Source: Cyanidioschyzon merolae
Lineage: Eukaryota
Assembly (NCBI GenBank): GCA_000091205.1
Contig: AP006500.2
Length of the DNA stretch: 64,000 bases
Reading direction: 5' to 3' (one strand)
Made by a program: the position numbers and the translations under genes. Within the stretch, counting starts at the first letter, position 1. The number at the start of each line of letters is the position of its first letter. Positions 4,325-57,756 of this stretch are shown in pieces. The notes under the pieces are model-generated. The model ran no database searches and was not told the origin of the DNA. It was given only the letters and a program-made list of their open reading frames with translations.

Positions 4325-7300
4325 CGGAGAGCAAACTCCAGTATTCCGACTCTTATTCCTTCCAGAAAAGTTGCTCTCCCAGTTCAAAGAGTTCCCAAAC
4401 TCCAAAAAGCCGTATTATCTGGGCCAGGCACCCCTACTGTGCAGCTCTCAAGAAGCACCGCAGAATGACAGGCACCAACGACAGCAGCACTGATTCTGAT
4501 CAATCAGAGCGTGCTGCTGCGCTCCGGACGGGTGCTGTGCGCTGAGCGCAGTACACCTGCCTTTCTAGAGGCGTATCGGGATATCGCTTTCTTTATCGTG
4601 AGGTATCCCAGATCCCTGGTTATCAGAGTGTATCCGGGTTGGATCAGCACCTTCAGTGACACTCGTTGGCTTCCATGGTAACTGAGCGGGCTGGGGCGTA
4701 CTGGAGCTGTTCTTCGTAAAGGCGCTAGCAGCGATCGGCTCTCTCGCCGTTTGAAAGGTGCGGTCTGGCGGGTTTCTTTCGCTTCAAGTCTGCTTTGTTT
4801 GGAGCGTTTCTGAGAACGAGAGCCTAAAACCAGGTCATTGTGGCACATGGGGACGGAAACGTTGAAACTGACCAAGGGCTGCAAAAGTGCGGGGCGATAA
4901 ACTTGGGGAAACACCGCTTCTGGAATCGACACATGTTCCAGCGGACGCTGTGCGCTTTGGGCTATCTCTGTTGAACGATACTTCGGTAAATTTGGCAGGT
5001 TGATAAAGCTCGAAAGAATTTTCCCAAATAGGTTTTTCGGAAAAGAACAGGTATCTTTTTGGGCATTTGCATGAAATGTCGATGCACAAGTCCTGGGGAA
5101 CCCAGCGCTGCTGGCTCACGCCGTGTGAAAGATAAAAACGTTGTTGGTTATTGTAGTAAATCTGGGGTTCGAGAGCACTGCGGCTTGTCGGCATTGTCTT
5201 CAAGGGGGCATGGGATTACGCTTGCGTCCGCATTCCGTTGAACTTTCGCCGGTGAAGACGAACTCGCAGCTTTTACAGTTTCATCCATGAGTGCATTTGG
5301 CTTGCGAAATTTATCATCTCTGCTCAGATCTTCTCAGTGTCTCCATATGCTTGAAAGTTCTATTTGTGTAAAACTCTAGAAAACCGTCTATGCAGTTACC
5401 ACTGCAGGTTTGAACAGGTCTACGGAACATGCGACATATGAACGAGCGGCAGCGTATTGACGTGCCCGCTTCCATTTGCTCTGAACAACTGTTGCATCGA
5501 ACCAGTCGTCTTTTTCCTGTCTTTGTGTTTCGGTGGAACATTTATTGAGATGTGCTGCCTCGGCATTCGAAGTGCGGCAATAATTGCTGACGGATTCATA
5601 TGTTGTTATAGGATTCATAGTCGACTTTTCGGATTGGCTCCTTAGATTCTTTGCTGCTGGATTTTTCCCGTCACTGTTATCAAGCTGATTCGCCACGATG
5701 TCGAATCATAATTCATAAAGTAGCGGATATACTTATCCAATTTGTACGTACAAGCCTCCACCTATCTCCTTTCCTTCAATACAGCATACCCGAATTGCCT
5801 AATCTCCATATTTTCGATGGTTGTATTCAAAACAGCTCTCGGATGTCGCAATACGCACCGCTGGACTCACGACAAAAGGTACTCAACATCGCCCCCTGAC
5901 GAGTCGTTCACAAATTCATACAGTAACCTCACTGAAGCTGTCACAAACCAATCGAATCCGTTCGAAAAATAAACCCGCCCTTCTTTGTGGCAATCGACGA
6001 AACAAAATTAAAAAGCAGCTTAATCCCTTGATGGGGCATGCCACCAGAGAAAAACATATATTTTGTTTGCGTGGAAAAGGGTATTGGATTCTAACTTGAA
6101 GGCACGAAGCAATCGCTTGAGGTGAAGAGTGCGTCAACGCTTCGCTCGAAAGGAGTTTAGATGGAGCGAGATTTCACAACTTCAACACCAGTCAAGATTT
6201 TCGCTCGGGTGCTATTTCTATGATAAACAATATCATTGTCCACAGTGACACAGAATGCGACACAGTGCGCTCGCGTGTGAAGCGGATAGAGTCCTTGCAC
6301 AGGCAATCGCCTAGAAGAAGCAAATGATTCCGGGATATGGGAGCGGGCGCGGGAATGAACGAGGGTGTCCAGGCAAGCCTTCTGTACCCATCAAGGGCAT
6401 TAACCGTGCCCTGAGACGGGTCTTCATGCGCCGTCATGTGACCATCTGTGACGGACGTGTGGTGGACATACGGAAATACCTCTAGGTCGTCACATGTCGC
6501 GGCTGCGAAGGGCACACCGATGCCGTGTACGAAGAAAATGTAACAGCAGTCGAAGCGTACGTCTCAATTTCCGCCAGTGCGGAAATACGTAGAAAACAGC
6601 AAGAAGCCTCGAATTCAGGACTTGAACGTTGCGATCAATACCCATGGACGGCTGACCACGCAGCTGGAGGAAGAAGAAAGACCGGCGTACATAAAGGCGG
6701 ATATGAAAAAAAATGGAAATGAAGCAATCGCAGTGAAAGACCCGAAAGGCAAGTATTGAAAACAATCGAAAGACCCCAAAACTTACCGGTGTAAGCACGA
6801 ATGAGCTAGTCGGAGTTGCACCATTTCGTTCTGAAAAGTGTGGATAATTTGCACGCAGTTTGTTCCGTTGTCAACAGTGATGCCTCGCCAGATTTCTGAG
6901 CATCTCGACGATGCATGACAGCACAAGGAAGTTTCGGTGTTGCTATTCAGACTCTAATTATAAATATGACCAAGAGCACCACCGATCAAACAGCTATGCT
7001 GGCCGAGGCCGCGGAGTCCACGAATGCGGCTGACGGTGCGCTAAACTCAGACCAGTGAATCCTGGAACACCTGGACCAGCAGCCCATATTTGTTTCCGAT
7101 CGTCTCTCTCGCAGATATGCAACTGACAGTGGCGTCCTTTGGATATGCAAAAAGTCGCGGATAGTCGTCCCGCTGGCACTGCTAGCTTGCGCGGAGACGG
7201 TCTTGAATGTACAAGTCATTCATTCTGTGATCAACAGGCGGGTCAGTCTCGCTTGAGCGGGTCGTTCTCCTGCCGCTCATGATCCCAAAATAGGGCCTTC

Positions 7301-7344
7301 CAAGTGCTATCGACATGACTGTCTCTCCATCAGTGTACGCCAGT

Positions 7345-10300
7345 CCACAGATGCTCAAAGAAACGGTATCAGAAAACCCACTGGATGCGAATTTTCCATA
7401 CCCTTGATATGAGCCGTGGTGAAGCGACATGGATGGGCAAAGAGAAAAAAAGGTGCCTCCCCAGGAGACCGTCACGAGCTGGACATTTTCGATTCCGCAT
7501 TGATAGGCGAACGCTTATGACAGGAGCGACCGGTACTCGCCTCTCTCGGCAACAGCTCTTTCGTGAAAAACGGAGGATCTAACCGTAGATACGCAAAGCG
7601 GTGCGAAATGCCTCTCGTAAAGCCTCGACCGGTGAGCGTAGCGACGACAACATCAGCCCCAGCGGCGATTCAAGCATGTAGTCGCCTGAGTATCGGCAAA
7701 CAGGCAGACTCAAGCAACACGTCTGCCTCCCTTCTTCGAAGCACTCTGTGGCCTCTGCTTCTCGCGTTATTCTGTCCTGCGGGTAGGCCACGTTGCTTGC
7801 TGTGACGCAAAGGCGCTCCACGAGTGCGCAGCTGAGACGAGCGTTGAGCTGGTGTTCGCTTCAGCCTGGAAGTGCACGCTCAGTCCAGTTGGAAGCGTCT
7901 TCTCTGTCCTCCGTCGCCATGCTTTCCCTCAGGATGCGTTCCATAAAAACGCTCGGATGCGTGACGCTGTCCTTGGACAAGTCGTTTTCAGTCTTCGTCA
8001 GCGTTGAACGACTCTGGTGCTGAGCGGGTCGCCTGCGGGGAGGGATCGGTGAAGCGCGCCTCAGGCGTTTGGCACGCTCGCGGCTGAGAAGCTCGTGGAA
8101 AAGGCAGCTGCGGGATCGGAAACATATATACGCGGGGAGGCAAGTTGCTGGCTCGCCGTCCATCCACGGGGTCTGACTGCCGGTGTAAGAAAATGGAAGT
8201 GGAGTGCGACGTGCACATCCACGCTACCCGCCACGAAAGGAGAATGCGAAGCAACCACCTGACAGAAAAGAGAAGGATCCCAGCCGCAAAGAGGACGACG
8301 AGAGTCAGGAAGGAAACCCTGCGCACTGGAAAGGCCAGTCCGAAACCAGCGCCTACACGTCGGTGCCAGAACGCATCAACGGAAAAAATTCTCCGAGTAC
8401 GTGAGATGCCCAGGGCTATTAGGTATTGCGTAGAATGTGGTTGTCGGAAGGCTCGCCTAGCTCTCCCCGAATGGATGCCCCTCGTGCAGCAACTGGCGGC
8501 AAGGGTTTCGGAGGCAGCGCTGCCAGCAGTTCGCATTCGTAGGGAGTTTTTGGTCAAACCCTCGAGCGACAGCACTAGGAATGCTCCGCTCCGAGCATGC
8601 CAGCGGGCCTGTTCGTGGTGTCATTGACCAATACACACGCTGGCCGGCATCCGTTTCTGCGCTGCACTACATGGTTGCTCGGCCCATGGACAGCGTAGGT
8701 GCCAGGAAAAGTTTCGCCCAAACCTCAGAACCCATAGCCAAGAGCGGGTCCGTGGCGACTACCCTACGAGGCGCACCCCAGAGGCGTTGTACTCGTTGCG
8801 TCCACAGCGTTGTGGTCGACGAAATGTTGGCGACTGACGCAAGCGGCTCTTGGGATGTCCGTGGAGGCACGTGACGAGCTGGCTCCGGACGAGAAGGTGC
8901 TGGAAGCGAGCTCGGAGATGTCGCATCGAGAACGAGCGACGCTCCAGATCGTCCGAGCTCATGGAGTAGGTTTCTGTTCCGGAGCTGGGCACGTCGTCTC
9001 GGAAGGATTACGCGGGCGTTGACCTGGCCTAACTTGCATCCTGCGCTGCTAGGTTTTCGCGAACGCGGCGCTCCACCGCAAGGCAGACCCTCTGGTCGTA
9101 TGTGAGCGCCTTTGCATCCTCAAACCCCTGGTCGATACGGTCCCCGCATTTCGGGGCAAAGCCCATGATACCACCGTGCATATTTGTGTGGTGTACGACG
9201 TCCTCAGTGGTCTACGATGTGTGCGCACGAGCAGCTAGGGGGCACTCTACCTATTTCGGGCAGAGCGTTGGCGGGGCTCGTTCATCGCCACTCGTTGGCT
9301 GGGAAAACACGGAAAGCGATGTACAGGGGCCTTGGAGACGCGCACGGCACATCAAACAGCATGCACTTTGCGAAACCCCGGCCCGCTCGGAGCAACGAGA
9401 CTCATATTCAACCGCTTACGGAAAACGAACGTGAAGGCTTCGTGGTGCGCGTGGATGCCGTTTCTGAGGGCGCCGTGGCCGTCACCGTGCCCGTTCGTCA
9501 CGGGGCAGCGCCAGAGACCTGAACGGAAAGCAAATGAGTCTGCTCCACGCCTCCAGGGCCCGGTATCATCCGGAGTTGGACGTGAACGACGCCAGCAGGC
9601 GTACCAACTCGTGGAATGACGACGTAAAGACCTGTCGTGACGCGCTGAGTACGGTATCGGGCAAAAGGAGATGCACTGCGCACCTCATTCATAACGGGTA
9701 TGAGCGACTAGATCGCTCATGCGGACGAGCCATGGCAGAGGAACGCGGGACCGAGCTCGAGTCTCCAACAGTCGCAACCGCTCGCGGGCACGAGGCGGGT
9801 ATTCGCAAGCTTCCTCAAAGCACTGGAAACGGAACTGGCCGATCGGTTGCATCTTATAAAGATAGTGCATGGCGGTGGACGCGCTCTAGTTGCAGAACTG
9901 GACTGTCGTCGATAACGCACAAGGGATCCGCGAACCGGCACTGAAGTGCTCTCGGTGATGAGCTCTGGACGAGATTCTCACATCGCGAGCACAGAGACAC
10001 GCTGAAACTGCCGGTGAAGACGATTTGGAAACGGAGCCAGACGTATGAGATGACGTACGCTGAGTTCATTGAGCTCCAGGTGGCAATGCACTCACAGTTG
10101 AGACGCTTGCTGTGGAGTGTCTCCATCACGAACGGGAAACGCGTCCAGTTTCTGAACCGAGATTTGAGCGCCCATATCAGCATCTGGAACTGCATCGTTC
10201 TTCAGGAGCGTCCATCGGCTTTACTTCAGGCGAGGCTTCGATTCGATTGTCTAGTATGCAGTGTGGGTATTGTGCTGGAATGCTGCGGACTCTCGATGAA

Positions 10301-10432
10301 AAACATCATGTATCATCAGAGCGGCGATTAAGTCCCCGCTTGGAGCAAGCCACTTGTATGGTACGGTCTGCACTGTATCAAGGCCGGACTGCCATATACC
10401 TTCGCCACGAACAATGTTCGTGGGTAATTGTG
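7345..10432. repeat. Copy 1 of a 3.09 kb near-identical direct repeat; copy 2 is at 31227-34313
   Basis: The same ORF translations appear at 7385-10474 and 31226-34323. Similarity starts at CAGATGCTCAAAGAAACGG and stops after CGTGGGTAATTGT in both copies. Only a few SNPs or indels differ, for example near 9470 versus 33353. No recognisable coding content. Confidence 0.85.
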
Positions 10433-10775
10433 GAACACTCATCGTATTCCTTACTTGGGTATTACGGAGTATAGCGCTGTAGCAAACGAGGCTGGCGCTG
10501 CAGTGCGTGGCATTCAAACATGACTCTGCGCTGGCCTTGAATTTCGTCCGGGCGGCATTCCGGTACAGTCTCGAAAACTTTCTCTGTGCAGCAGCGTGCA
10601 GCTGTCTGCAACTTTAGTTTGAGTTACCGCGCTATTACGTTCATATTCTGTACAGCACTCTTTTGCAGCGGTAGAGCTAGTTCTCTGTACAGCTGCGTAC
10701 TTTTATATATATATGAATACGCTCTGCGGGGCGAAAATGTTTCGCGAACATGAGGTAAACTCATGTCCAGTCACC

Positions 10776-11310: not shown

Positions 11311-12527
11311 TAGCGTTAAATGTTACACAGGCACATGCTTGATGCAAAATTCGGGAGCGGCGCCCAATGATGTTTCTTGTACAGTTGCAGAAAGATTTAT
11401 TCAACTTTGTTTAGCTTAAGCTTTTCCCGAGATGTGAGCATCGCGCGTCTCCTGCACGGGGACCCTGAAGCGCTGCCTTGCACGTCTTCCGGCATAGAAT
11501 ACTTTCAGTGTTTGCTTGGCAGTCAGTTCTGAAACGGGGAGAGAGGCATCGCGACGAAGACGCCGCAGTGTAAGCTGCGAAGAACACTGACAAGTTTATG
11601 GTGCACGCTGTAGCACCAGCGCTTCGAGTTGTGCGCTTTTTGGAGAAGTCGTGCTACGGTCTCTTTCAGGCTCCTTGTTCCCGGGGTTGCAGCACGTTAC
11701 GACCACCTGGTGCTGGACGGGCTAGTAACGTGAGAGCACCTCGCGAGCTGCCGTTTGAGAAAGAAGAGCACGCAGTGGGTTTACCGCGCCTCGCTTCTCT
11801 GGGCACCGCAGCCGTTGTGGGTCCAGCGGCAGCTTTTGTCTCCGCTATGGTGATATCGTATGCCCTGACTTTTTGGCAACACTCCACTAACCTAAACAAG
11901 TCCAAATCAAGAGGCTAAGGACGCTCAGACAGGAGCATTCTGTGCACTTGGACTCTTCGGGACTCCCGGCAAGCCGCGGGTGACGAGCGCGCCCCGGCTA
12001 CAACGCAGCAACCGAAGTGGAACAGATGAAAGGCGTTTCTTGGAAAAAATTTCTGGCAAAGAACTCAAATTTTCGATACGCATAATCTCCCCGATGTTTC
12101 GGACTTAGGTACAGGGCTGGTCGTGAAGCACAGAGGTTTTGTCTTTCTATCGAACTTCGAAAAGTTGCTTATCCGGCGCGAAATCCGCATGCAATGCCTT
12201 CCGGGCCATTCTATCCAGCAGATAAGCGTCATAGAGGCGTTTCACGACGCTTTCGCTACTCTTACCTCATTTCAGAGCTTATCAACCTGAACGATTCCAT
12301 TTCAGAATGGAAATCAAGACCTTTCGTAGCCGATACCATCGAGCTGCGCAGAAAAGCGGTATATGTTGCGTGGTTCCCAACTGCGTATCCCTTTCAACTA
12401 AGTTTAATTTCACCTCCGCTACCGCGCTTACCACGAGATCAAAACCACTAGGCACAGTACCGTACAAATCGTAGACGAATTGCCTGTAGAATATATTTTT
12501 ACTGAACAGTGCAAGGAGAACTGCAAT

Positions 12528-13757
12528 TACCCTGCAGGTCAGTCACACCATATTACTCGCGTGGTGGTAGAGCACTTTAAGAAAGAGTTACATGCGCTCC
12601 GCATCAAAACCCGATATTCTCAAAGAGCACTTGCGTTTAATGGTAGAGAATGACCTGTTAATCACCTGACTGAAAGCAAAAGCGAGGATCGTGGTCGCCA
12701 CCTGCTTCTCTGTTTCTCAACCGGTAGTTCATGTAATGCTGAAAAACTGGCAAACAGTCGCAAAAAATCCCTGTTCACTCAAGGCCATCTTTTTACCGAC
12801 ATCGCAGTTAAAACAAAGTTCCTGGAACGTCATTATCGGCATGAAACAGAGGGGCGTCGGTTTGTTGTTTCAGTCGATGAGACTCCCTTCGGACAAGACG
12901 GTCGGGTCGTTGATGAGTATTCGAGGTGAAGGGAGCCCATTGTCTGTGCGATCGGACTCAAAGAGAACGACGATATTATCTGTTCTAGCTGTAGTGGATT
13001 CAAGTGGCGGCCTGGGTTTTGCTGGAACAGAAGGCCCTCACAACAGCACCAACAACTTTGTCGAATCATTGAAGACTTTTCCCAGACGTCCGGCGACTTC
13101 GTTCTGTTGGACAACGTGGTACTTCGCCATTCCCGTTGCGTTCGGGCTTTTGCCGAGGCTATCGGAGTAGAGATGCTTTTCATTCCTTCGTACGCTCCGC
13201 GGTTCAACCGCATCGAAGGAGAGTTTTCTATCAAAAAAAGCAATGCACGCACCACTATTCGAATCGATGATGCGTTCAGCACACGGTGACACGCCGGAGC
13301 CAATTTTATTTTGCTTGCGCAAATACTGCTCTTTTGGGGAAGGTCCCCACCTGAAGACATAACGAAGTGCGTTCATTTGAAGAAATAAAAAATCTTAGGA
13401 ATGAGCTGGGGTGTACACTTGAGAAGTTCGAGATAAAGAAACGCCAGCGGGCGCTTCGGCGAAAGAAAAATACGGAGAGCTTACAGAGCAGCATATGGCA
13501 CGAAAGGCGCAAGTTCGAATACTACTTGTACTCGGAACACGAGCGGCGGCAAGAAACGCATGGAGCTCGTGATCCGAGGCTTGAACGCTGCTATCAATAT
13601 CAGGAGATATTCTGTGTTGAAAACAAGGCCCGCAGGGATAACGCGTGCCAATTTTGTGGGATTGCCTCTCAGAGTCAAAATGCTCAAGGACGAGCTGATA
13701 CCGATAGCAGGGGGCCGGCGAAAAAGATATCGGAAGGTGTCACAACGTCGCTGGAAA
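12528..13757 (+). mobile_element. Tc1/mariner-like element with DDE_3 transposase remnant plus Fanzor/TnpB-like C-terminal remnant, copy A (decayed)
   Basis: The 5' end (12528-12700) is homologous to the reverse complement of 56235-56090 in copy B. It contains the DDE_3 signature VLLDNVVLRHS...FIPSYAPRFNRIEGEF and then the RuvC-III-like SGGKKRMELVIRGLNAAINIRRYSVLKTRPAGITRANFVGLPLRVKML. The 3' block CCGATAGCAGGGGGCCGGCGAAAAAGATATCGGAAGG is conserved. The 3' boundary is uncertain. Confidence 0.6.
12691..13289 (+). pseudogene. Tc1/IS630-family (DDE_3) transposase pseudogene, frameshifted
   Basis: ORFs 12691-13170 and 13107-13289 lie in different frames. The motifs DN..H and P.YAPRFNRIEGEF match the Tc1/IS630 DDE_3 C-terminus (D...P.YSPDLNPIE). 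Confidence 0.65.
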
Positions 13758-13903: not shown

Positions 13904-15283
13904 TTGTACAGCTTTATGTGGCAGACTGGGCTGCACTCGTCGACGTCTTTATATTGGAGTTGTACGCTTGGAGCAACTGGCACTTCGACAGGAAAGCCAG
14001 CCTCGGTCGCGCACCGCTGCTCAGTCTCAGCAGCGGGCTTCCGCGCTGCCCCGATGCCGTGTATCCGTCGTGGTGTCTGCACGTCACGCACGCACTCGAG
14101 GACTTCAAATCCCTTGAAGATGCAACGGAACACTGATCCGGCGGGCAATAGCATAGGAATCGAACCGACTGTGCGAGTAGAGGACGTATACAAGTCGTTC
14201 CAAGATAAAAAGAAAAGCCTCTTCTCTTGGCGTTTTGAAGCGTTGACAGTTCCGGCTCTCAGGGGGGTGTCCCTTGACGTTTACGCTGGTGAAGTCTTCG
14301 GTTTACTTGGCCCGAACTCTTCGGGCAAGACAACGCTCTTACGTTGCATGTCGACTTTGTGCAAGCCAGATCGAGGTGCTGTGTACGTGTTAGGCAAACA
14401 TACGGTGCGAGAGTCCTTTGCGGTGCGGCATTGCATAGGAGTGGTCTTTCAAGACGCCGGTGTTGATAAAATTCTCACTGGGCGTGAGCATATGGAACTC
14501 TTTGGAAACTTGTACCACATGCCACCCGCTCATTTGCGTCGTCGCATTGATGAACTTGTCGGCATGCTAGAACTCGAGCCCTACGTGGATCGCCTAACGG
14601 GCACCTATTCGGGAGGAATCAAGAGGCGCCTCGATCTCGCTCTAGGGCTGCTGCATGAACCTTCAGTTCTGTTGCTTGATGAGCCCACGGTCGGCTTAGA
14701 TCTTAGCAGCCGGCGAGTTATCTGGAATGCTGTTCGAAAATATGCTACAGCGGGGAATACGATTGTTTTCACGTCTCACTACTTAGAAGAAGTTGAGATT
14801 CTGGCTGACCGAGTCGCTATTCTGGATGAGGGGGTCTCGATCGCGGTCGGTTCGCCGCCAGACCTGAAACGCCAAATCGGTGGTAGACGGTTCACGATTC
14901 GAGTGGAGGAGTTTTGTCCAGAAAATATTGCCCAGGCGGCTCTGGAGGCGCTACGAAGCGAGGGCATCGTAGAGAGGGCGCAGATCAATGCATTTGATTA
15001 CAATGCGCTCGAGCTATTTGTTGAGCCGGAGCTGCTGGATCAGCTAGGTATTGATCCTTCGTTGAACGAGGATGAAGCCTATTCGGTGTACGCGGAAAGA
15101 ATTCGTCAGACACTGAAAGGAAAAGGATTTGATCTCTTCGGTATTACGGAACGAGGTGTGAGTCTGAGCGATGTCTATATGTCGTTTGCTGGGCGCGATT
15201 TTCGCGCTGCAGATGAAGCCGCGCGATTGGATGCAAGCACGAAAAAGCGGAAACCAAAGCGCCGTTCCAGCTTGGAAAGCTAG
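13904..15283 (+). CDS. ABC transporter ATP-binding protein (ABC-2/ABCA-type NBD only), with an S/T/R-rich N-terminal presequence; alternative start at 14120
   Basis: Walker A GLLGPNSSGKTTLL, signature YSGGIKRRL and Walker B LLLDEPTVGLD are present. There is no transmembrane domain. The first 70 aa look like an organellar transit peptide. Confidence 0.8.
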   Translation: MYSFMWQTGLHSSTSLYWSCTLGATGTSTGKPASVAHRCSVSAAGFRAAPMPCIRRGVCTSRTHSRTSNPLKMQRNTDPAGNSIGIEPTVRVEDVYKSFQDKKKSLFSWRFEALTVPALRGVSLDVYAGEVFGLLGPNSSGKTTLLRCMSTLCKPDRGAVYVLGKHTVRESFAVRHCIGVVFQDAGVDKILTGREHMELFGNLYHMPPAHLRRRIDELVGMLELEPYVDRLTGTYSGGIKRRLDLALGLLHEPSVLLLDEPTVGLDLSSRRVIWNAVRKYATAGNTIVFTSHYLEEVEILADRVAILDEGVSIAVGSPPDLKRQIGGRRFTIRVEEFCPENIAQAALEALRSEGIVERAQINAFDYNALELFVEPELLDQLGIDPSLNEDEAYSVYAERIRQTLKGKGFDLFGITERGVSLSDVYMSFAGRDFRAADEAARLDASTKKRKPKRRSSLES

Positions 15284-16333: not shown

Positions 16334-17746
16334 GTGCCAAGGTTAAAAAGGAACACTGACCTTATCGGACTGCTGCTACCTATCGATTCCTTAACCTACC
16401 TTGAATGGATGCTTGGCCTCGAAAGTCGAATTGCAGTAATACGGGCATACAGATTCATATACAGTTCTGAGAAGTTCGGTGGTCTGTTCGACTTGACTCC
16501 TTCGACGCTTTGCCGCTAGAATGCGTTACGGATCCGAAATAAAGATGGTACGCGACGCCCTCGAACAGGGTTCGTTATTCGACCTGCATCGTTGTCCAAT
16601 TCACATGTTCAACCTCAACTGTGCTGCTTTCCTTATACGCAGCAGGCTGAAAGCACGCATCCTTCAAGTTTCCGATCATTCTATTTCAAGGCGACTCGAG
16701 GGCGCAGCAGTTCGCGCCGCTGGACTGGCGAAGAATGCTGCTTGACGTCGCCCCTGAGGAAATGCTCAGAAGCTCATAGCGAAAAGTCACTGAAATTCTC
16801 ACGATAAATAATCGATTGCGTTCGAGAGTCGAATCCTCCCCTCTTTGTGGTCATCGACGAAGCAGCATTCGACGGCAGCGCAATAGATCTCACGGGAGAT
16901 GCTTTCATATGTCACCGTCTCTTCTGTTTGCATGGAAAGGGTCTTGGACTTTGAGTTGAGGCATCGCAGCGATTGCTTCCAGTAGAGCCTGCGTCACCGC
17001 TTTGCGGTAAGGGACCGTAAAAGGATCGAAATTTCTCGACTTTTACCCTAGCGAGGTGTCTCCTCCCCGCACTAGTGCCGTCGTGGGCAGCATCGCGCGA
17101 CGCAAACCCTCCGTCCAATGAACAGCGAGCGCTGGTGTTTGCATCGGGCAGAGTACTCGCGGACATGGTCGCCCAGAAGAACCCCGTGATTTAAGGGTAC
17201 AGCACCGGGCGCGGAAACCGCGGAGCGCATCCTGGGGCGCCTTCTGTACCCTTCAAGCGCATGAACCGAGCGCATGAACCGAGCGCATGAACCGAGCGCA
17301 TGAACCGAGCGCATGAACCGAGCGCATGAACCGAGCGCTGAAGCGAGCCCTCACGCGCTGCAGGGTGAGCCTCGTTGGCGAAGGAGGCGTACTCCTTATA
17401 TGCGACCATCTAAGCGCATCCATGCGTCACGCCTGTGCAGAGGGCAGCGAGACTGTGTCCAAAGAAGATGACAAGAGCAATTGAAACGCAGATCGCAACC
17501 TCAGCCTGTGCATGAAATGCGTCTAAACAGGCCGCAAGTAACGTGGCTCGGACTGTACTGCTGCCAGCAATACTCCCCCATTGGTGACAATAGAACTTCA
17601 GGGATAGGTGAGACCAGCGTATTCAAAGGCGAGCTTGAGAGCAACGAAAGAGAAGCAGTCGCTGAACGGTCAGTGAAAAGCTGGTTTTCATGGCAATTAC
17701 GAGGGACTCAAACTCTAGGGTGTGCTTGTGAGTTCCCTGAGTGCAT
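16334..17746. repeat. Left arm of inverted repeat IR1 (about 1.41 kb); right arm 19344-20761
   Basis: Mirrored ORFs: 16521-16745(+) equals 20346-20570(-), 16912-17166(-) equals 19925-20179(+), and 17481-17849(+) matches 19143-19610(-) up to ...EFPECI. Boundaries were read directly: CCAAGGTTAAAAAGG at the outer edge and GAGTGCATC at the inner edge. Confidence 0.85.
17262..17339. repeat. 13-bp tandem repeat (GCGCATGAACCGA x6) inside the IR1 arm; mirrored at 19747-19824
   Basis: Direct reading: cgcatgaaccgagcg repeated six times. The inverted copy ctcggttcatgcg also occurs six times. Confidence 0.9.
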
Positions 17747-17989
17747 CAGTCTTATTTTTATGTGGCACATGTACAAGGCACGCTTCGTCGGAGCAGGCAA
17801 TGGAAGCTCGCCTCACGACCGACGGTGGATTCTGCAACGAGCTGCATAACGCGCTGCGGTCTGTTCGTAGCAGCATTTATGTTGCTAGTGGTGCTTTCTC
17901 GAGCTGAGGACGAAAGCTGCTTCCTTAGAAGGACACGGGGTGGCGATCGAAGTCCACGCTGAAGTCAGCGACTTCCTTCTGGCATTTCT

Positions 17990-18670
17990 ATGCGAAGAAA
18001 CACGCTGAGTGGCTTTCTCCCTCTGCTTAGGGTAAGGGCACGAAAAGCGACTGTTTCGCAACAACCCTCCTCGATGAGCGTTTTCGCACAGTACTCGTCT
18101 CAGCAGCACCAGCAGTGCTCCTCTATAGAGCGGGTGAGTTGTCGCCGTTTCCGCTTAGAGTCTCCACCTGATACTTGGAGGCTAGGCGCTGCGCTGGCTC
18201 GCCTTGCACGGCCTGGCGATGTGTTTCTGCTTCAGGGCAGCCTCGGAGCCGGAAAGACGACATTGGCTCGGGGCTTTATTCAAGAGTTTCTGAACGATCC
18301 CGAACTTGAAGTTGTCTCACCTACGTATCTTCTGGACGTGACCTATCCGGACTACGAGAACAAGGCCAAAGTTCCTGGTGTAGTTCTTCATCATCTGGAC
18401 TTGTATAGGCTGGAGAACGCTGACGATCGCCCAATTGCGGACTTTGCCGATATATTCACCCATCAAATATGCTTGGTCGAATGGCCAGAGCGCCTGGGAA
18501 AGTATTCAACACCAGAAGAATTCTTGCAGATCCGCTTCTCCTTCGTAGCGGGCGCGGATGGGCCTCGCGTTATTGAATCATCTGGTTTTGCGAGTCACAA
18601 GCACCTGGAGAATCCACGCTGGTCACAGGCACGCATCGATCAAATACAATGGCAATGTTCAGCAGCTTAG
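17990..18670 (+). CDS. tsaE: tRNA threonylcarbamoyladenosine (t6A) biosynthesis protein TsaE/YjeE-like P-loop ATPase with an N-terminal organellar presequence
   Basis: GDVFLLQGSLGAGKTTLARGFIQ (P-loop), SPTYLLDVTY and HHLDLYRLEN match bacterial TsaE family motifs. The first roughly 60 aa are S/R-rich. The gene lies in the spacer between the IR1 arms. Confidence 0.7.
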   Translation: MRRNTLSGFLPLLRVRARKATVSQQPSSMSVFAQYSSQQHQQCSSIERVSCRRFRLESPPDTWRLGAALARLARPGDVFLLQGSLGAGKTTLARGFIQEFLNDPELEVVSPTYLLDVTYPDYENKAKVPGVVLHHLDLYRLENADDRPIADFADIFTHQICLVEWPERLGKYSTPEEFLQIRFSFVAGADGPRVIESSGFASHKHLENPRWSQARIDQIQWQCSAA

Positions 18671-19343
18671 ATATGCCGAGAGCCTCCGAAGCTTTCGAGG
18701 AGACCACCATTGCGTAGACCCTGACGCACACCTCGGGTGTGATTGGACCGGCTCTCTGTGCGTCTTCAACGCTTTTCTCGTTGCCGCAGAGACGAGCACA
18801 TATGTGGCATGGCTGTTTCATGCTGCCTCGATCTCTTATATACTGGAGTGCGAGCAGGCCCTATCATCAAGTCGACACCGTGTGCGTCGTTCTAGCGCTG
18901 CCGCTTGATGGAGTTCTCCGTAGAAAGCAGCCATGTGAACTTTCGTGGCAATGCACATATCCGTTCCGCAAGCGTGCTACTTGTTCAAACTGCTACATAT
19001 GGGAATTTTCAGTCTTTGCCGACGCATAAATCTTCGAAAGATGGACGCACATGTTAAGGAGAACGAAAGATCTTTCAAGATCCACGAAACCGCGAAATAT
19101 GAACGCGGCATTAGCAGCGTCGGAAGCAGTCTAGCCCAACGACTACCCAACGACTCTTCTGTGGTATATCTTCGAATGACTTCTGTCCATTGTCGCGTGA
19201 TAAGAGTTGATGGTATGGCAGTATCCGTAGATAATAATCACAGCGCAATGTCGTGTGTTCGACATGAGTTGCGGAGGCACCCCGCAACGTTTGTTCGTTG
19301 TCTTCGTCTCATGCTTACTCTCGTGAGAGAATAAAGTAAAGCA

Positions 19344-20761
19344 GATGCACTCAGGGAACTCACAAGCACACCCTAGAGTTTGAGTCCCTCGTAATTGCCA
19401 TGAAAACCAGCTTTTCACTGACCGTTCAGCGACTGCTTCTCTTTCGTTGCTCTCAAGCTCGCCTTTGAATACGCTGGTCTCACCTATCCCTGAAGTTCTA
19501 TTGTCACCAATGGGGGAGTATTGCTGGCAGCAGTACAGTCCGAGCCACGTTACTTGCGGCCTGTTTAGACGCATTTCATGCACAGGCTGAGGTTGCGATC
19601 TGCGTTTCAATTGCTCTTGTCATCTTCTTTGGACACAGTCTCGCTGCCCTCTGCACAGGCGTGACGCATGGATGCGCTTAGATGGTCGCATATAAGGAGT
19701 ACGCCTCCTTCGCCAACGAGGCTCACCCTGCAGCGCGTGAGGGCTCGCTTCAGCGCTCGGTTCATGCGCTCGGTTCATGCGCTCGGTTCATGCGCTCGGT
19801 TCATGCGCTCGGTTCATGCGCTCGGTTCATGCGCTTGAAGGGTACAGAAGGCGCCCCAGGATGCGCTCCGCGGTTTCCGCGCCCGGTGCTGTACCCTTAA
19901 ATCACGGGGTTCTTCTGGGCGACCATGTCCGCGAGTACTCTGCCCGATGCAAACACCAGCGCTCGCTGTTCATTGGACGGAGGGTTTGCGTCGCGCGATG
20001 CTGCCCACGACGGCACTAGTGCGGGGAGGAGACACCTCGCTAGGGTAAAAGTCGAGAAATTTCGATCCTTTTACGGTCCCTTACCGCAAAGCGGTGACGC
20101 AGGCTCTACTGGAAGCAATCGCTGCGATGCCTCAACTCAAAGTCCAAGACCCTTTCCATGCAAACAGAAGAGACGGTGACATATGAAAGCATCTCCCGTG
20201 AGATCTATTGCGCTGCCGTCGAATGCTGCTTCGTCGATGACCACAAAGAGGGGAGGATTCGACTCTCGAACGCAATCGATTATTTATCGTGAGAATTTCA
20301 GTGACTTTTCGCTATGAGCTTCTGAGCATTTCCTCAGGGGCGACGTCAAGCAGCATTCTTCGCCAGTCCAGCGGCGCGAACTGCTGCGCCCTCGAGTCGC
20401 CTTGAAATAGAATGATCGGAAACTTGAAGGATGCGTGCTTTCAGCCTGCTGCGTATAAGGAAAGCAGCACAGTTGAGGTTGAACATGTGAATTGGACAAC
20501 GATGCAGGTCGAATAACGAACCCTGTTCGAGGGCGTCGCGTACCATCTTTATTTCGGATCCGTAACGCATTCTAGCGGCAAAGCGTCGAAGGAGTCAAGT
20601 CGAACAGACCACCGAACTTCTCAGAACTGTATATGAATCTGTATGCCCGTATTACTGCAATTCGACTTTCGAGGCCAAGCATCCATTCAAGGTAGGTTAA
20701 GGAATCGATAGGTAGCAGCAGTCCGATAAGGTCAGTGTTCCTTTTTAACCTTGGCGACAAA
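19344..20761. repeat. Right arm of inverted repeat IR1
   Basis: See the left-arm entry. The arms are near-identical, including the same six-unit tandem-repeat count. Confidence 0.85.
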
Positions 20762-21009: not shown

Positions 21010-22881
21010 GTGTGCTTGGGGACACGCATTTTGTTTGGAGAAACTCCTTTGCCGTGGGCGCGTGAGCTTTTTGGGACTCTGAGAACCACAGCGGACTGGA
21101 GACGTCTAGTGAACCAAAGCTCAAAAAAGCCAATCGCTCAGGTTCTTCCTACGAGGAACGGCACCAAACCGTCTGCGAGCATGGTAGACCGTAGGATAGC
21201 TAATTCAGGCCAGGTGAGGGGCCTCTCTTCTTCACTTGAGAGCACTGGTTGGAAAGCGCTTTCGAAGAGAAAACTTTGTTTGGTTATTTTCATTCTGCTT
21301 CCCCTGCTTAACATAGTACAGACACGAATTTACTCTCGGGAGCAAGCGCACCACGTACCCGCGGCAAAGTCGCCGAGACATCACGACCTGTTGTCGCTAA
21401 GAGAAATACTGCATCTTCTTGAAAAACATGAAAAAGAAATCCATGAGAAACATAGAGCATCACGCGACACGGTAACCGTCGTTCTGAACGTGTTCCTTCG
21501 ACCGGGAGCATTCCGTCGCGTCCTCGATGGAATCGGAAGTCAGACTGCTCTGCAAAGCATCACTCATGTAAACGTTCTTGCCTTGGGGTCCCCATTCGTC
21601 CATCAGTATGGGAAGCTTCTTGAAGAGTACCGCAAGACTGCGAGTTGGACATCGGAGGTTTCTATTTCCCTCGTGACATCGGAGCCGACTTTCAACCCCG
21701 GTTATTTTGGACGTTTTCTGCTGTCGATGAATCTGAATACAACTTTCACGCTCATTTTAGATGATGACGTTGTGCTGGGAGCGCGATACCTGGAGCTGTG
21801 TCTGCGTTGGGCCCGCTCTATCGACAAACATGCTGTGCTTGGCCAGCGCGGGGCGCGATATTACAGAAACGAACTTCGAAAGCGCTCATTGTTTGGCCTT
21901 GGCAAGCGCCTTTCTCCGAATAAATATCATGATTTTTTCGGGGAACACGGCCTACTGCGGGACACTGATGTGCTCTTCTCCGCTTGGTTCTTGCGGACGA
22001 AGTGGATTCTCAAGATGTTCGCGGAGGAGCCCCTCACCTGGGCCACCGCCGAGGATATCCATTTAGGTATGTTGCTTCGTCAGCGCTTCGGCATAAGAAT
22101 GGTCGCCTTACCGGTAGATCCCCAGTTGCCAGAATTTCGACTCAATCATGACCAATCCCTGGAAATAACGAACCGTTCTTGGTCGGACGAGAATACAGCA
22201 CTGGTTCGCCTTCGTGATGCAGCGGTGGATATGTGGCTTTCGAGAGAGCTTCATGGTCAACTTTTGAATCCACTGCTATACTCCTGGACCAGAAAAGATG
22301 TTTTTTGGTACAGCATGCCTGTGAAACGAGGTGCAGGAGCGCTATCTGCCTACTCGTCATCCCAACGGAAGAATCGCAGCGGACGCCTACATGTTCTGTG
22401 GCGTCCCTTTGCCTGCAAACGGCTTCGTTTCGCTCCGAACGATTCTGTCCCAATGATATCGCTGCCATACTGTCGCCGCTTACGCTACCGACGACCTCGT
22501 ATCGGCATTGCAAAGTCATACTTCGGGCTCTGGAATAGCGGTTATTTAGCGGACTGCATGTTCTGGGGTGATCGAAATGGGGCTTCATACCATGAGTTTC
22601 TGGGCTATACCCTCGATATTCGAGGCCAAGATGAATGGATCCTAGACGGGATTTTGTATGGAAATACCTACGGCCGCGTTCGGCTCTGGGATGTCCGCCG
22701 GAACGCACTGATCATCGATGAATATCTCGAACAGAACGTAACCCTGCGACTGAAGCGCGTTACAGTTGTGCCACCGACGACCATTATAGCCCTCTTTTCA
22801 GAACGTCTGGATGACGGTGTACGAGCAGCACAGCGGAAATTGTTTGATGAAATTCGAATCTTACCGAAGGATGGCACGTAA
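21010..22881 (+). CDS. Putative Golgi-type glycosyltransferase with type II signal anchor and DxD motif; family uncertain
   Basis: There is an N-terminal hydrophobic anchor, LCLVIFILLPLL. The DxD-like segment is TFTLILDDDVVLGARY, with a downstream acidic motif TAEDIHLG. It is a single 623-aa ORF. Confidence 0.5.
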   Translation: MCLGTRILFGETPLPWARELFGTLRTTADWRRLVNQSSKKPIAQVLPTRNGTKPSASMVDRRIANSGQVRGLSSSLESTGWKALSKRKLCLVIFILLPLLNIVQTRIYSREQAHHVPAAKSPRHHDLLSLREILHLLEKHEKEIHEKHRASRDTVTVVLNVFLRPGAFRRVLDGIGSQTALQSITHVNVLALGSPFVHQYGKLLEEYRKTASWTSEVSISLVTSEPTFNPGYFGRFLLSMNLNTTFTLILDDDVVLGARYLELCLRWARSIDKHAVLGQRGARYYRNELRKRSLFGLGKRLSPNKYHDFFGEHGLLRDTDVLFSAWFLRTKWILKMFAEEPLTWATAEDIHLGMLLRQRFGIRMVALPVDPQLPEFRLNHDQSLEITNRSWSDENTALVRLRDAAVDMWLSRELHGQLLNPLLYSWTRKDVFWYSMPVKRGAGALSAYSSSQRKNRSGRLHVLWRPFACKRLRFAPNDSVPMISLPYCRRLRYRRPRIGIAKSYFGLWNSGYLADCMFWGDRNGASYHEFLGYTLDIRGQDEWILDGILYGNTYGRVRLWDVRRNALIIDEYLEQNVTLRLKRVTVVPPTTIIALFSERLDDGVRAAQRKLFDEIRILPKDGT

Positions 22882-25800: not shown

Positions 25801-26547
25801 TGCAAAGCGGAGACGTAGAATTCCATGGAAATGATTGCAGCAGTGATTGGAGTTCGAACCCAGCATCCGTTTCCATGCAAGCAGAACAGACGGGATCCTG
25901 TAACTGCACATCTCGTAAGAGTAACTGGGCCACATTTGAATGGCGTTTCACTGATGGTAATGAAGAGAGGTGGATTCGACGTGCAAAATGAATCAATCAT
26001 GTGAAGAGGTAATTTGATTGAATTTTCTGCATGAGCTTGTGAGCAAAACGTGAATGAACGACATCGAGTTTTTTACTCGTCTATCCATCAGAGCGAATCT
26101 TGTGCCCACGTGTAGCCCAGAAACAGAACTTTCGAGTTCTTGAACACTCCGGAATTCGAGCATCCTGGTCATAAGGGAAATAGAAGAGTGAAGGGATGCA
26201 CGTATGAACTGTTTCATGATTTCGTATATTTTACAGACCCTTGTTTTACGACATCGCGGTTCTGCTTAATTTCGGTCATTCAACGAATTGCACCGGTAAA
26301 AAGTGGAAGGAACCACTCCGGAAAGAAAATCGAGAACTCTTAAACTACGTATGAATCCGTAAAATTTTAGTCATGATATTCGAATGTCGACAATGTTCAC
26401 CTGAAACATTTTCGGAGAAAAACAAAAGGTATGAGCAGACCGAGCTGTTCAGTGTTCTGTTCTAACCTGACACTGGTGTATATGTATGTTCAGTAAAACA
26501 ATAAACTTTCAAGGACCCTAGAGTGTCTATACACACCCAATCACATA

Positions 26548-27095
26548 CGCCTCCCAGCATGTTTTGGCCGGTCTCCTGCTATCGGCCTCAGTTTCTCTTT
26601 TTACACGTCGACCCTGAGAGGCTGTCCCACAAAGTTTGCCTGCGTCAGCTCTTCGCGTCTCGTCTTCAGCGCCACACATCGTCTGACATTGACGGCGGCG
26701 TCTTATTCTCGGCTTAGAAAATCCTTGGGTTTATGGCGATTGGTTGAGGTCACTACTGCAAGGAATCGCAGAACAAGCGCCCTCTGTGCCACTGTACTCT
26801 CGTTATCGTCTCTTCGGGCGAAAAACTTTTCTCGCCTGCCTCCTCTTTTCCTCATCCTCTTCGTCACTTGCTCGTCTTCACTCGATGGTCAGGGACGGGA
26901 GGATCTTGAAGCTTCTCCGACATCAGGCAATGACGGCCCTGCAAAATCCCTGACTTCCATATCCATACCTCTAACTTGGATTTTGTACTTTTTAAAAATG
27001 ACGTACTTCGAGCTCATTTGCTATAAACCGCGAAAAGGCATTTAATTACACGCACATGAGGTCGATCACACTTGAGGTGAAAGAATATTCGGACC
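26548..27095 (-). mobile_element. Fanzor/TnpB-remnant MITE-like element, copy E (non-autonomous, decayed)
   Basis: The minus strand encodes ...*DAAVNVRRCVALKTRREELTQANFVGQPLRVDV*. The 3' block is ...CCGATAGCAGGAGACCGGCCAAAACATGCTGGGAGGCGTATGTGATTGG. The region 26920-27080 is homologous to 59995-60170 and to 11130-11300. Confidence 0.6.
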
Positions 27096-31226: not shown

Positions 31227-34200
31227 TGCACAGATGCTCAAAGAAACGGTATCAGAAAACCCACTGGATGCGAATTTTCCATACCCTTGATATGAGCCGT
31301 GGTGAAGCGACATGGATGGGCAAAGAGAAAAAAAGGTGCCTCCCCAGGAGACCGTCACGAGCTGGACATTTTCGATTCCGCATTGATAGGCGAACGCTTA
31401 TGACAGGAGCGACCGGTACTCGCCTCTCTCGGTAACAGCTCTTTCGTGAAAAACGGAGGATCTAACCGTGGATACGCAAAGCGGTGCGAAACGCCTCTCG
31501 TAAAGCCTCGACCGGTGAGCGTAGCGACGACAACATCAGCCCCAGCGGCGATTCAAGCATGTAGTCGCCTGAGTATCGGCAAACAGGCAGACTCAAGCAA
31601 CACGTCTGCCTCCCTTCTTCGAAGCACTCTGTGGCCTCTGCTTCTCGCGTTATTCTGTCCTGCGGGTAGGCCACGTTGCTTGCTGTGACGCAAAGGCGCT
31701 CCACGAGTGCGCAGCTGAGACGAGCGTTGAGCTGGTGTTCGCTTCAGCCTGGAAGTGCACGCTCAGTCCAGTTGGAAGCGTCTTCTCTGTCCTCCGTCGC
31801 CATGCTTTCCCTCAGGATGCGTTCCATAAAAACGTTCGGATGCGTGACGCTGTCCTTGGACAAGTCGTTTTCAGTCTTCGTCAGCGTTGAACGACTCTGG
31901 TGCTGAGCGGGTCGCCTGCGGGGAGGGATCGGTAAAGCGCGCCTCAGGCGTTTGGCACGCTCGCGGCTGAGAAGCTCGTGGAAAAGGCAGCTGCGGGATC
32001 GGAAACATATATACGCGGGGAGGCAAGTTTCTGGCTCGCCGTCCATCCACGGGGTCTGACTGCCGGTGTAAGAAAATGGAAGTGGAGTGCGACGTGCACA
32101 TCCACGCTACCCGCCACGAAAGGAGAATGCGAAGCAACCACCTGACAGAAAAGAGAAGGATCCCAGCCGCAAAGAGGACGACGAGAGTCAGGAAGGAAAC
32201 CCTGCGCACTGGAAAGGCCAGTCCGAAACCAGCGCCTACACGTCGGTGCCAGAACGCATCAACGGAAAAAATTCTCCGAGTACGTGAGATGCCCAGGGCT
32301 ATTAGGTATTGCGTAGAATGTGGTTGTCGGAAGGCTCGCCTAGCTCTCCCCGAATGGATGCCCCTCGTGCAGCAACTGGCGGCAAGGGTTTCGGAGGCAG
32401 CGCTGCCAGCAGTTCGCATTCGTAGGGAGTTTTTGGTCAAACCCTCGAGCGACAGCACTAGGAATGCTCCGCTCCGAGCATGCCAGCGGGCCTGTTCGTG
32501 GTGTCATTGACCAATACACACGCTGGCCGGCATCCGTTTCTGCGCTGCACTACATGGTTGCTCGGCCCATGGACAGCGTAGGTGCCAGGAAAAGTTTCGC
32601 CCAAACCTCAGAACCCATAGCCAAGAGCGGGTCCGTGGCGACTACCCTACGAGGCGCACCCCAGAGGCGTTGTACTCGTTGCGTCCACAGCGTTGTGGTC
32701 GACGAAATGTTGGCGACTGGCGCAAGCGGCTCTTGGGATGTCCGTGGAGGCACGTGACGAGCTGGCTCCGGACGAGAAGGTGCTGGAAGCGAGCTCGGAG
32801 ATGTCGCATCGAGAACGAGCGACGCTCCAGATCGTCCGAGCTCATGGAGTAGGTTTCTGTTCCGGAGCTGGGCACGTCGTCTCGGAAGGATTACGCGGGC
32901 GTTGACCTGGCCTAACTTGCATCCTGCGCTGCTAGGTTTTCGCGAACGCGGCGCTCCACCGCAAGGCAGACCCTCTGGTCGTATGTGAGCGCCTTTGCAT
33001 CCTCAAACCCCTGGTCGATACGGTCCCCGCATTTCGGGGCAAAGCCCATGATACCACCGTGCATATTTGTGTGGTGTACGACGTCCTCAGTGGTCTACGA
33101 TGTGTGCGCACGAGCAGCTAGGGGGCACTCTACCTATTTCGGGCAGAGCGTTGGCGGGGCTCGTTCATCGCCACTCGTTGGCTGGGAAAACACGGAAAGC
33201 GATGTACAGGGGCCTTGGAGACGCGCACGGCACATCAAACAGCATGCACTTTGCGAAACCCCGGCCCGCTCGGAGCAACGAGACTCATATTCAACCGCTT
33301 ACGGAAAACGAACGTGAAGGCTTCGTGGTGCGCGTGGATGCCGTTTCTGAGGGCCCGTGGCCGTCACCGTGCCCGTTCGTCAAGGGGCAGCGCCAGAGAC
33401 CTGAACGGAAAGCAAATGAGTCTGCTCCACGCCTCCAGGGCTCGGTATCATCCGGAGTTGGACGTGAACGACGCCAGCAGGCGTACCAACTCGTGGAATG
33501 ACGACGTAAAGACCTGTCGTGACGCGCTGAGTACGGTATCGGGCAAAAGGAGATGCACTGCGCACCTCATTCATAACGGGTATGAGCGACTAGATCGCTC
33601 ATGCGGACGAGCCATGGCAGAGGAACGCGGGACCGAGCTCGAGTCTCCAACAGTCGCAACCGCTCGCGGGCACGAGGCGGGTATTCGCAAGCTTCCTCAA
33701 AGCACTGGAAACGGAACTGGCCGATCGGTTGCATCTTATAAAGATAGTGCATGGCGGTGGACGCGCTCTAGTTGCAGAACTGGACTGTCGTCGATAACGC
33801 ACAAGGGATCCGCGAACCGGCACTGAAGTGCTCTCAGTGATGAGCTCTGGACGAGATTCTCACATCGCGAGCACAGAGACACGCTGAAACTGCCGGTGAA
33901 GACGATTTGGAAACGGAGCCGGACGTATGAGATGACGTACGCTGAGTTCATTGAGCTCCAGGTGGCAATGCAGTCACAGTTGAGACGCTTGCTGTGGAGT
34001 GTCTCCATCACGAACGGGAAACGCGTCCAGTTTCTGAACCGAGATTTGAGCGCCCATATCAGCATCTGGAACTGCATCGTTCTTCAGGAGCGTCCATCGG
34101 CTTTACTTCAGGCGAGGCTTCGATTCGATTGTCTAGTATGCAGTGTGGGTATTGTGCTGGAATGCTGCGGACTCTCGATGAAAAACATCATGTATCATCA

Positions 34201-34313
34201 GAGCGGCGATTAAGTCCCCGCTTGGAGCAAGCCACTTGTATGGTACGGTCTGCACTGTATCAAGGCTGGACTGCCATATACCTTCGCCACGAACAATGTT
34301 CGTGGGTAATTGT
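31227..34313. repeat. Copy 2 of the 3.09 kb near-identical direct repeat
   Basis: See copy 1. It starts about 300 bp upstream of the RRM gene start and ends about 290 bp before the DUF1517 gene. Confidence 0.85.
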
Positions 34314-34605
34314 TAAACTATAATTGTGTTTCATTCATCAACATGACGGAGAATAAATCCACCAATCACATAACATGTACAAAACGTACAGACCGATTGG
34401 GCTGCAATCACCTCGGCAGGTGCGGAACGGGCACCGCATCCCCGAGGTGAGCCTGGCTCTCTGGAGCGGGCGCGCTGAGAACACCGGCCAGTAACGGGAT
34501 CACTCCCACGCGAAGCGCTTCGAAATACCAAAGAACATTCTTCGTTTCGTTGAGCGTTAAACGGCATTGCCACGTGAAATTCCTCTCGTTTGGAAGTAGA
34601 CGTTT

Positions 34606-57673: not shown

Positions 57674-57756
57674 CTCAGACCGCTGGGAGTCTGCATACTG
57701 CTTGACCCGCAGACCGGTGCCGTCGACAAGCGTTCAAGTTTTCTTAGGGTACCTCT

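Follow-up and report, generated by a model that had tools for sequence, protein, structure and literature searches.

The closest described systems to the locus reported here are the low-copy repeats and segmental duplications (SDs) that are subject to gene conversion, such as human SDs and the G-gamma/A-gamma globin genes. Like the element described below, these are linked, co-oriented blocks of kilobase size that occur in few copies with >99% identity, and their conversion domains likewise have paralogues that are more similar than orthologues, an abrupt edge, clusters of SNPs at tract ends and the capacity to act as substrates for non-allelic homologous recombination. Our element is, however, geneless, resides in the 16.5-Mb haploid genome of an alga, and forms a discrete 3.4-kb unit at three intergenic sites without carrying its neighbors along. 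A second comparison is offered by the same genome. The WSV486-like (CMe-1A) interspersed repeat of Cyanidioschyzon merolae bears Fanzor1, measures about 3-3.2 kb and is present in 150-253 copies (PMC1955436, PMC3627910). Our element shares its genome, similar length, absence of TIRs or recognizable target-site duplications (TSDs) and decayed or absent ORFs, however, it is found in three contexts rather than hundreds, its copies are ~99% rather than ~80% identical, and it has no Fanzor-like domain.

Two further classes invite comparison. Solo LTRs and LTR retrotransposons also give rise to ORF-less direct repeats of kilobase size, although our element differs from them in its termini (ACTC...CGGA), the lack of a TSD and of a retroelement interior, and its three copies; no LTR retrotransposons were reported in the C. 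merolae genome by Nozaki et al. (PMC1955436). Helitrons resemble it in having no TIRs or TSD and in the short perfect hairpin that lies a few nucleotides before the right edge of its core. Unlike a Helitron, it has no TC/CTRR ends, no A^T site and no Rep/helicase remnant, and the hairpin is not at the end of the full unit.

We analyzed a stretch of 64,000 nt from C. merolae (contig AP006500.2; hereafter the window) in which a pair of long direct repeats had been noticed. We conclude that this is a previously undescribed but ordinary low-copy repeat under concerted evolution and not a new biological system. It is probably an old, non-coding, low-copy repeat of the C. merolae lineage only, the core of which has been homogenized by interlocus gene conversion.

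Extent and Genomic Setting of the Repeat

Six long ORFs of the window were searched by exact sequence and five were present, four of them as C. merolae 10D BAM82576, 82582, 82583 and 82586; the 10D chromosome carrying the repeat is 1,253,087 bp long. A blastn self-comparison of the window aligned 7346-10431 with 31229-34313 in the same orientation over 3,086 nt at 99.55% identity (13 mismatches and one 1-nt indel), in agreement with the original prediction of a direct repeat at ~99% identity, the coordinates of which were right within 1-2 nt. Start to start, the two copies are 23,883 nt apart, with 20,797 nt of intervening DNA. The block has a GC content of 59% vs. ~52% in its surroundings, and its plus strand is purine-rich, resembling the sense strands of the plus-strand genes of the window.

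While the idea of a 3.09-kb repeat in two copies stands for this core, the unit is really larger, at 3,424 nt (7045-10468), and a third copy lies just outside the window. Homology to copy 2 persists beyond both core edges at ~60% identity. The limits of copy 1 were set by the copy at the third locus (locus C) in metagenome contigs L002, L004, L007 and L011-L015, where the flanks are unrelated on both sides. The full unit ends ACTCAG...TACGGA and the core runs from CACAG to AATTGT. No tandem repeats or meaningful internal repeats were found in the element, the parts of which are as follows.

7045..10468, plus strand: copy 1, full-length element of 3,424 nt; 5' ACTCAGACCAGTGAATCC ... GGGTATTACGGA 3'; ~99% identity to locus C
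7045..7345, plus strand: 5' terminal segment of copy 1, outside the 99.5% block; 97-100% identity to locus C
7346..10431, plus strand: homogenized core of copy 1; 99.55% identity to 31229-34313
10405..10423, plus strand: perfect hairpin with an 8-bp stem (CCACGAAC), a 3-nt loop (AAT) and the second arm (GTTCGTGG)
10432..10468, plus strand: 3' terminal 37 nt of copy 1, identical to locus C haplotype L002
31019..31228, plus strand: diverged 5' terminal segment of copy 2, overlapping the upstream extension of the RRM ORF
31229..34313, plus strand: homogenized core of copy 2, the blastn match to the core of copy 1
34314..34350, plus strand: diverged 3' terminal 37 nt of copy 2; 21/37 match to copy 1 in fixed register

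Pfam searches named the following genes around and between the two copies.

13904-15283: ABC ATPase
17990-18670: TsaE
30090-31085, minus strand: RRM protein
34615 (start): DUF1517

Further genes of the window named in this way were a glyoxalase, DUF1350, eIF2B-epsilon, a GFO/IDH oxidoreductase, an isochorismatase and an ABC1 kinase. The earlier placement of the copies upstream of the RRM gene (about 300 bp) and of USP7 (about 3 kb) is about right, whereas the labels "Fanzor" and "glycosyltransferase" given to parts of the interval were not reproduced with Pfam.

Comparison with Cyanidiococcus yangmingshanensis, a member of the sister genus that keeps the order ABC - USP7 - 274aa - NHX - ECH, places two of the insertion sites in an evolutionary context. 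The USP7-ABC gap measures 2.3 kb in this species vs. 9.7 kb in C. merolae, and the NHX-ECH gap 0.9 kb vs. 4.7 kb; by blastn and tblastx neither Cyanidiococcus gap contains a trace of the element. This synteny shows the DNA between the copies to be host DNA, and the copies are, therefore, not a pair of LTRs belonging to a single element. The original prediction had reached the same view from the host genes in the interval, and the conserved USP7-ABC adjacency bears it out. The Cyanidiococcus DUF1517 block is on another contig with other left neighbors, therefore copy 2 is at a synteny breakpoint and its site is not comparable.

A Third Copy and the Size of the Family

Many assemblies of hot-spring metagenomes include a called 97-codon ORF that lies within the repeat. 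The contigs with this ORF fall into three contexts according to their flanks: that of copy 1 on the USP7 side, that of copy 2 on the DUF1517 side, and that of a third locus, locus C, with what we term copy 0. In many independent contigs the third context consists of an ECH/3HCDH/thiolase fusion gene on the plus strand, the element, and the Na/H exchanger NHX on the minus strand. The 10D orthologues of ECH/thiolase and NHX (BAM82571 and BAM82572) belong to the same chromosome, and their numbers immediately precede those of the window's genes. Copies 0 and 1 are linked by contigs of ~14 kb, which run from the last ~160 nt of copy 0 through NHX, a 281-aa gene and USP7 to the first ~125 nt of copy 1; these bridging contigs break 125-160 nt inside the repeat. 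Copy 0 has the same orientation and is located ~6.8 kb to the left of window position 1 and ~17 kb to the left of copy 1; it was read in environmental genomes 99.2-99.6% identical to 10D, from which we infer its presence in 10D itself.

Copies 0 and 1 share 7045-10468 at ~99% identity and the sequence past both ends is unrelated. In window coordinates the three copies start at about -10,240, 7,045 and 31,019, all as direct repeats within ~45 kb of one chromosome. No fourth flanking context was seen among the metagenome contigs recovered, and long contigs left of the ECH gene end at the element. The same contig collection yielded no empty site at locus C. Searches for a foreign origin gave no match to the element in phage, plasmid or IMG/VR collections. 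All of the junctions are reproduced by independent metagenome assemblies from many samples. The original prediction had proposed that the absence of other copies, together with conserved synteny, would make the repeat a local segmental duplication; the third copy removes the basis for that assignment.

The Diverged Ends of Copy 2

Copy 2 (about 31019-34350) is also full-length with the same termini, and its end segments are 57-61% identical to those of copy 1. On the left, 7047-7243 of copy 1 aligns with 31019-31205 at 61% over 202 nt (blastn E=4e-5; z=11.8 vs. shuffles). Homology in copy 2 starts ≤2 nt from the left end common to copies 0 and 1, and the word CAGTGAATYCTGRAACACC is conserved and found only at these element starts. 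On the right, 21 of the 37 positions are the same in copies 1 and 2 when compared in fixed register (p about 1e-4), and each copy terminates in ACGGA. Identity falls from 99.5% to ~60% within one nucleotide at both edges of the core, without a gradient. The diverged ends of copy 2 are also present in metagenome contigs L003 and L005, thus their divergence predates the strain split.

Comparison With Transposon Classes

The element was compared with each of the major transposon classes. The original prediction had raised the possibility of a solo LTR-like element, however, TG...CA termini are absent from both the full unit and the core, there is no TSD, and the repeat occurs in just three contexts among the contigs recovered. 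The 20-nt flanks share only words of 3-5 nt (chance median 4) that are not adjacent to the ends. An LTR retroelement was rejected: the intervals hold USP7, NHX, the ABC ATPase, TsaE and other genes in synteny with Cyanidiococcus, and three contexts are all that exist among the contigs. The 5' 40 nt are unrelated to the reverse complement of the 3' 40 nt and, with no TSD either, the test for a TIR transposon or MITE failed. A Helitron was also rejected, with no 5'-TC or 3'-CTRR ends on either strand and no A^T target; the hairpin at 10405-10423 precedes the edge of the core (ending TTGT) and not the end of the full unit. A non-LTR retrotransposon or SINE was rejected on the absence of a poly-A or simple tail, the common 5' end of all three copies and the absence of a 5' truncation series, and no RT domain was found in the six frames of the element.

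By blastn and tblastx the element is unrelated to the other repeats of the window, including the dispersed family with members at 12457-13710 and 55048-56302. No Pfam TnpB/OrfB (Fanzor-like) domain was detected in any frame. The element is therefore probably not a WSV486-like (Fanzor1 CMe-1A) repeat, although it is set apart from the published family by description and not by consensus. As a separate observation, the other repeats of the window were not confirmed as Fanzor elements by Pfam.

These comparisons bear on the suggestion that the repeat is a non-autonomous transposable element of no recognized class, without TIRs or TSDs in the manner of CMe-1A or TE-N2_CMe, that made three recent local hops; in a variant of this suggestion, the mobile entity is the 3,086-nt core, which ends past the hairpin and entered three related targets. 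We consider this explanation unlikely, while still deserving of attention. All three copies start and end at the same nucleotides (within ~2 nt), as a discrete unit would, and both orthologous Cyanidiococcus sites are devoid of the element. The razor-sharp core edges, with the 8-bp hairpin 8 nt from the right one, would also suit a mobile core, and the main repeat family of C. merolae likewise has no TIRs or recognizable TSDs (PMC3627910). Against this, TIRs are absent and the words shared by the flanks are as expected by chance; there is no TG..CA, tail, 5' truncation series, Helitron end or A^T target. The three contexts found are all within 45 kb, no metagenome contig has an empty locus C site, and there is no similarity to the other dispersed family of the window. 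Furthermore, recent transposition does not account for the ends of copy 2, which have ~60% identity and are common across strains.

Evidence for Gene Conversion

Divergence between strains was assessed from the core and flanks of metagenome contigs with the copy 1 context (context A), each compared with 10D. Other strains diverge from 10D by 0.23-0.42% in the USP7 coding sequence, by 0.55-0.88% in intergenic DNA and by 0.65-0.84% in the core of the repeat, the last of these being less secure than the flank comparisons as contigs across a 3-kb repeat may be mosaics. Copies 1 and 2 of 10D differ from each other by 0.42-0.45%. The distance between these two copies is thus smaller than that from either of them to the corresponding copy of another strain. 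Site patterns relative to contig L001 point the same way: six sites join L001 with copy 1, six join it with copy 2, and 19 separate L001 from both. This symmetric 6:6:19 distribution is expected if the 10D copies coalesced after the strain split, even though both loci exist in both lineages.

Locus C provides a second line of evidence. Its haplotypes have eight SNPs in 47 nt around the 3' end of the element vs. one SNP in the next 2.6 kb, and the states of this 3' end are mosaic, ranging from copy-1-like in L002 to 6/37 positions different in L004; across the locus C haplotypes other than L002, 2-6 of the 37 positions of 10432-10468 differ. Two contigs combine the flanks of different copies, with L003 joining the left flank of copy 1 to the right flank of copy 2 and L005 joining the left flank of copy 2 to the right flank of locus C. 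These are probable chimeric assemblies, alternatively they could be real recombinants. The similarity of the copies within 10D, the mosaics at locus C and a 99.5% identical core between ~60% identical ends are together the classic signature of interlocus gene conversion.

One feature sits less comfortably with this account. Abrupt edges without a gradient are not obviously the product of homology-dependent conversion and count against it, unless a structure such as a hairpin fixes the end of the tract. The perfect hairpin at 10405-10423 stops 8 nt short of the right edge of the core, with a second instance at 34287-34305, and such hairpins occur in the window at a background rate of 0.2 per kb. 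Its closeness to the core edge was a post hoc observation. Judging by its position, the hairpin may help to fix the boundary of conversion, or it may instead be where a mobile core terminates.

The high identity of the copies could also be read at face value: an intergenic block was recently duplicated, either as a plain chromosomal segment or in the assembly, and its copies have not exchanged sequence since. This is close to what the original prediction had in mind when it suggested a recently duplicated intergenic block. An identity of 99.55% over 3 kb between linked, co-oriented copies is what such an event would leave. We regard it as highly improbable. The junctions recur in independent metagenome assemblies, and the reference sequence has been described as 100% complete (PMC1955436). 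A discrete unit is present in three or more direct copies, the ends of copy 2 are old, diverged and common across strains, and less divergence separates the 10D copies than separates the strains. As copy 2 is old and has diverged ends, the identity of 99.5% reflects conversion and not recent duplication.

An old repeat with a core homogenized by gene conversion remains our preferred explanation, and the sequence of events was probably as follows. A family of three members, based on a unit of 3,424 nt, would have formed when copies inserted into intergenic DNA after the split from Cyanidiococcus, and the copies would be much older than an identity of 99.5% implies. The termini of copy 2 would then have drifted to ~60% identity while the 3,086-nt interior was kept alike by interlocus non-crossover conversion. 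USP7, NHX, the ABC ATPase and TsaE are among the genes that would be deleted by crossovers between the direct repeats. A haploid cell would presumably purge such deletions, leaving only conversion products to be seen.

Coding Content, RNA Content and Constraint

The repeat has no recognizable coding content, as originally predicted, and this holds across stop-free stretches, codon usage, Pfam and protein searches. Its longest stop-free stretch spans 210 codons and has a junk-like composition. A codon-usage log-odds score trained on the genes of the window did not consistently favor any of the six frames, and Pfam gave no match in the ten longest stop-free pieces or in the six full-frame translations. 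When the 210-codon piece was compared with 5.8 billion proteins the only cluster retrieved consisted of near-identical metagenome ORF calls (≥90% identity), while an exhaustive phmmer search of the 179-codon piece, the longest on the plus strand, against 1.84 billion representatives returned 0 matches.

Searches for RNA genes gave a similar picture. Rfam produced no match at gathering thresholds across the window and none at E≤1 in 6900-10600, and a tRNA search found none. In sliding-window folding the mean z was about 0 on both strands, as in control regions. One folding window (8845-8994) had a z of -2.8, which is unremarkable among 44 tests. Between strains, the core diverges as much as neighboring intergenic DNA and more than the USP7 coding sequence, and this neutral rate argues against selective constraint. 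No sign of function is apparent in the sequence of the element, which evolves at a neutral rate.

It may nonetheless be asked whether the repeat is a functional non-coding unit (for example, a gene for an lncRNA, a shared regulatory module or an element acting in chromatin or replication) that is kept in triplicate by selection with concerted evolution as a by-product. Three 3.4-kb non-coding copies persist in a eukaryotic genome that ranks among the most compact and repeat-poor (PMC1955436), the core is homogenized while the ends drift, the plus strand has the purine bias of local sense strands, and copy 2 occupies nearly all of the divergent promoter region between RRM and DUF1517. As regards chromatin, the literature describes one CENH3 region per C. 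merolae chromosome. Such a role is very unlikely, however, given that the core diverges at the rate of neutral intergenic DNA, Cyanidiococcus does not have the element, there is no Rfam match at E≤1, and its folding is like that of the controls. Its neighbors also vary from copy to copy: copy 0 is next to gene 3' ends, copy 1 has a 5' end 2.7 kb off and copy 2 is next to two 5' ends. That the unit or its core is a new kind of non-autonomous mobile element without TIRs or TSDs, moved locally by the machinery that spreads CMe-1A, or else a functional non-coding locus maintained in triplicate by concerted evolution, is a proposition that we regard as improbable. Of the options that the original prediction had listed, an uncharacterized non-coding repeat is the one that survives.

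Implications for C. merolae

C. merolae serves as a model of a "minimal" eukaryote, reportedly almost transposon-free, and the repeat adds to its genome a case of concerted evolution of junk-like DNA. There are also practical consequences. Three 3-kb blocks that are >99% identical can mislead read mapping and metagenome assembly, as the probably chimeric contigs illustrate, and the same blocks can mislead gene targeting by homologous recombination near USP7, NHX, ABC, TsaE, RRM and DUF1517. [quoted passage not shown]

Possible exchange and junctions between copies

The 3' end of the element, the 3,424-nt non-coding repeat, is hypervariable at locus C, the site of its third copy in near-identical hot-spring metagenome strains. 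A spot of 47 nt (L002, positions 7337-7383, compared with contigs L004, L011, and L016) is present as four haplotypes with up to 8 differing sites, and the adjoining 2.6 kb holds 1 SNP. Two of the variable sites lie 2 and 10 nt past the end of the element; copy 1 cannot have been their source.

Two perfect hairpins with 8-bp stems are found in the element, and such hairpins occur at 0.2 per kb across the whole window. The right edge of the 99.5% identical block lies 8 nt from the second of them (10405-10423 in copy 1).

Perfect hairpins in the element
Copy 1 9700-9720, copy 2 33582-33602: 8-bp stem
Copy 1 10405-10423, copy 2 34287-34305: 8-bp stem

Two metagenome contigs join different copies. 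L003 (JGI 3300001340) runs from the left flank of copy 1 through the repeat into the right flank of copy 2, which, taken as real, would be the junction of a 24-kb deletion. L005 (JGI 3300057139) leads from the left flank of copy 2 through the repeat to the right flank of locus C, a join that, taken as real, would mark a circle or a duplication. Both are probably chimeric assemblies; they could be real products of non-allelic homologous recombination (NAHR).

Other repeats and open reading frames

Two long inverted repeats are also present in the window.

Inverted repeats
16336-17758 and 19333-20755: arms of 1,423 nt, 100% identical
57755-59147 and 61014-62405: arms of ~1,393 nt, 99.9% identical with one indel

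The first, with a spacer of 1,574 nt, encloses the TsaE gene (17990-18670), and this segment could be invertible via the arms. It is a further low-copy repeat of very high identity in the same region as the element and may have been homogenized too. The second has a spacer of ~1.9 kb, and its ORFs 58392-59217 and 60947-61922 had no Pfam match.

A diverged dispersed family, a member of which starts only ~300 nt to the right of copy 1, probably corresponds to the ~3-kb “WSV486-like” (CMe-1A) repeat that is abundant in C. merolae.

Members of the diverged dispersed family
12457-13710 and 55048-56302: main pair, inverted, 72.5% identity
10767-10931 and 26537-26701: smaller piece
55065-55220 and 59703-59859: smaller piece
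46891-46956 and 58201-58266 / 61894-61959: smaller piece

The original prediction labeled such sequences Fanzor elements; Pfam detected no TnpB or Fanzor domain in the longest stop-free pieces of the family, and the label is therefore unverified. Glycosyltransferases predicted between the copies were likewise not confirmed, with neither long ORF matching Pfam at E ≤ 0.01.

Long ORFs between the copies
21010-22881, plus strand: 623 aa
27522-28943, minus strand: 473 aa

Copy 2, synteny, and the RRM gene

Copy 2 coincides with a synteny breakpoint (window ~31000-34600) relative to the Cyanidiococcus contig JANCYV010000016.1. There, DUF1517 is preceded by ABC1, isochorismatase, and an 828-aa gene in that order, whereas in C. 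merolae it is preceded by RRM with copy 2, and ABC1 and isochorismatase are inverted beyond GFO/IDH (48431-52264). DUF1517 and the ABC/USP7/NHX block are on separate Cyanidiococcus contigs.

The 331-codon RRM ORF (start 31085, minus strand) has no entry in the protein collection, and copy 2, through its diverged 5' end, supplies the first ~22 codons. Translation probably starts instead at the minus-strand ATG at 30911 (MERKDKRRK...), in which case the left end of the element would lie ~108 nt upstream of that ATG. Given this predicted start, the RRM promoter must therefore be located in the element or at its edge.
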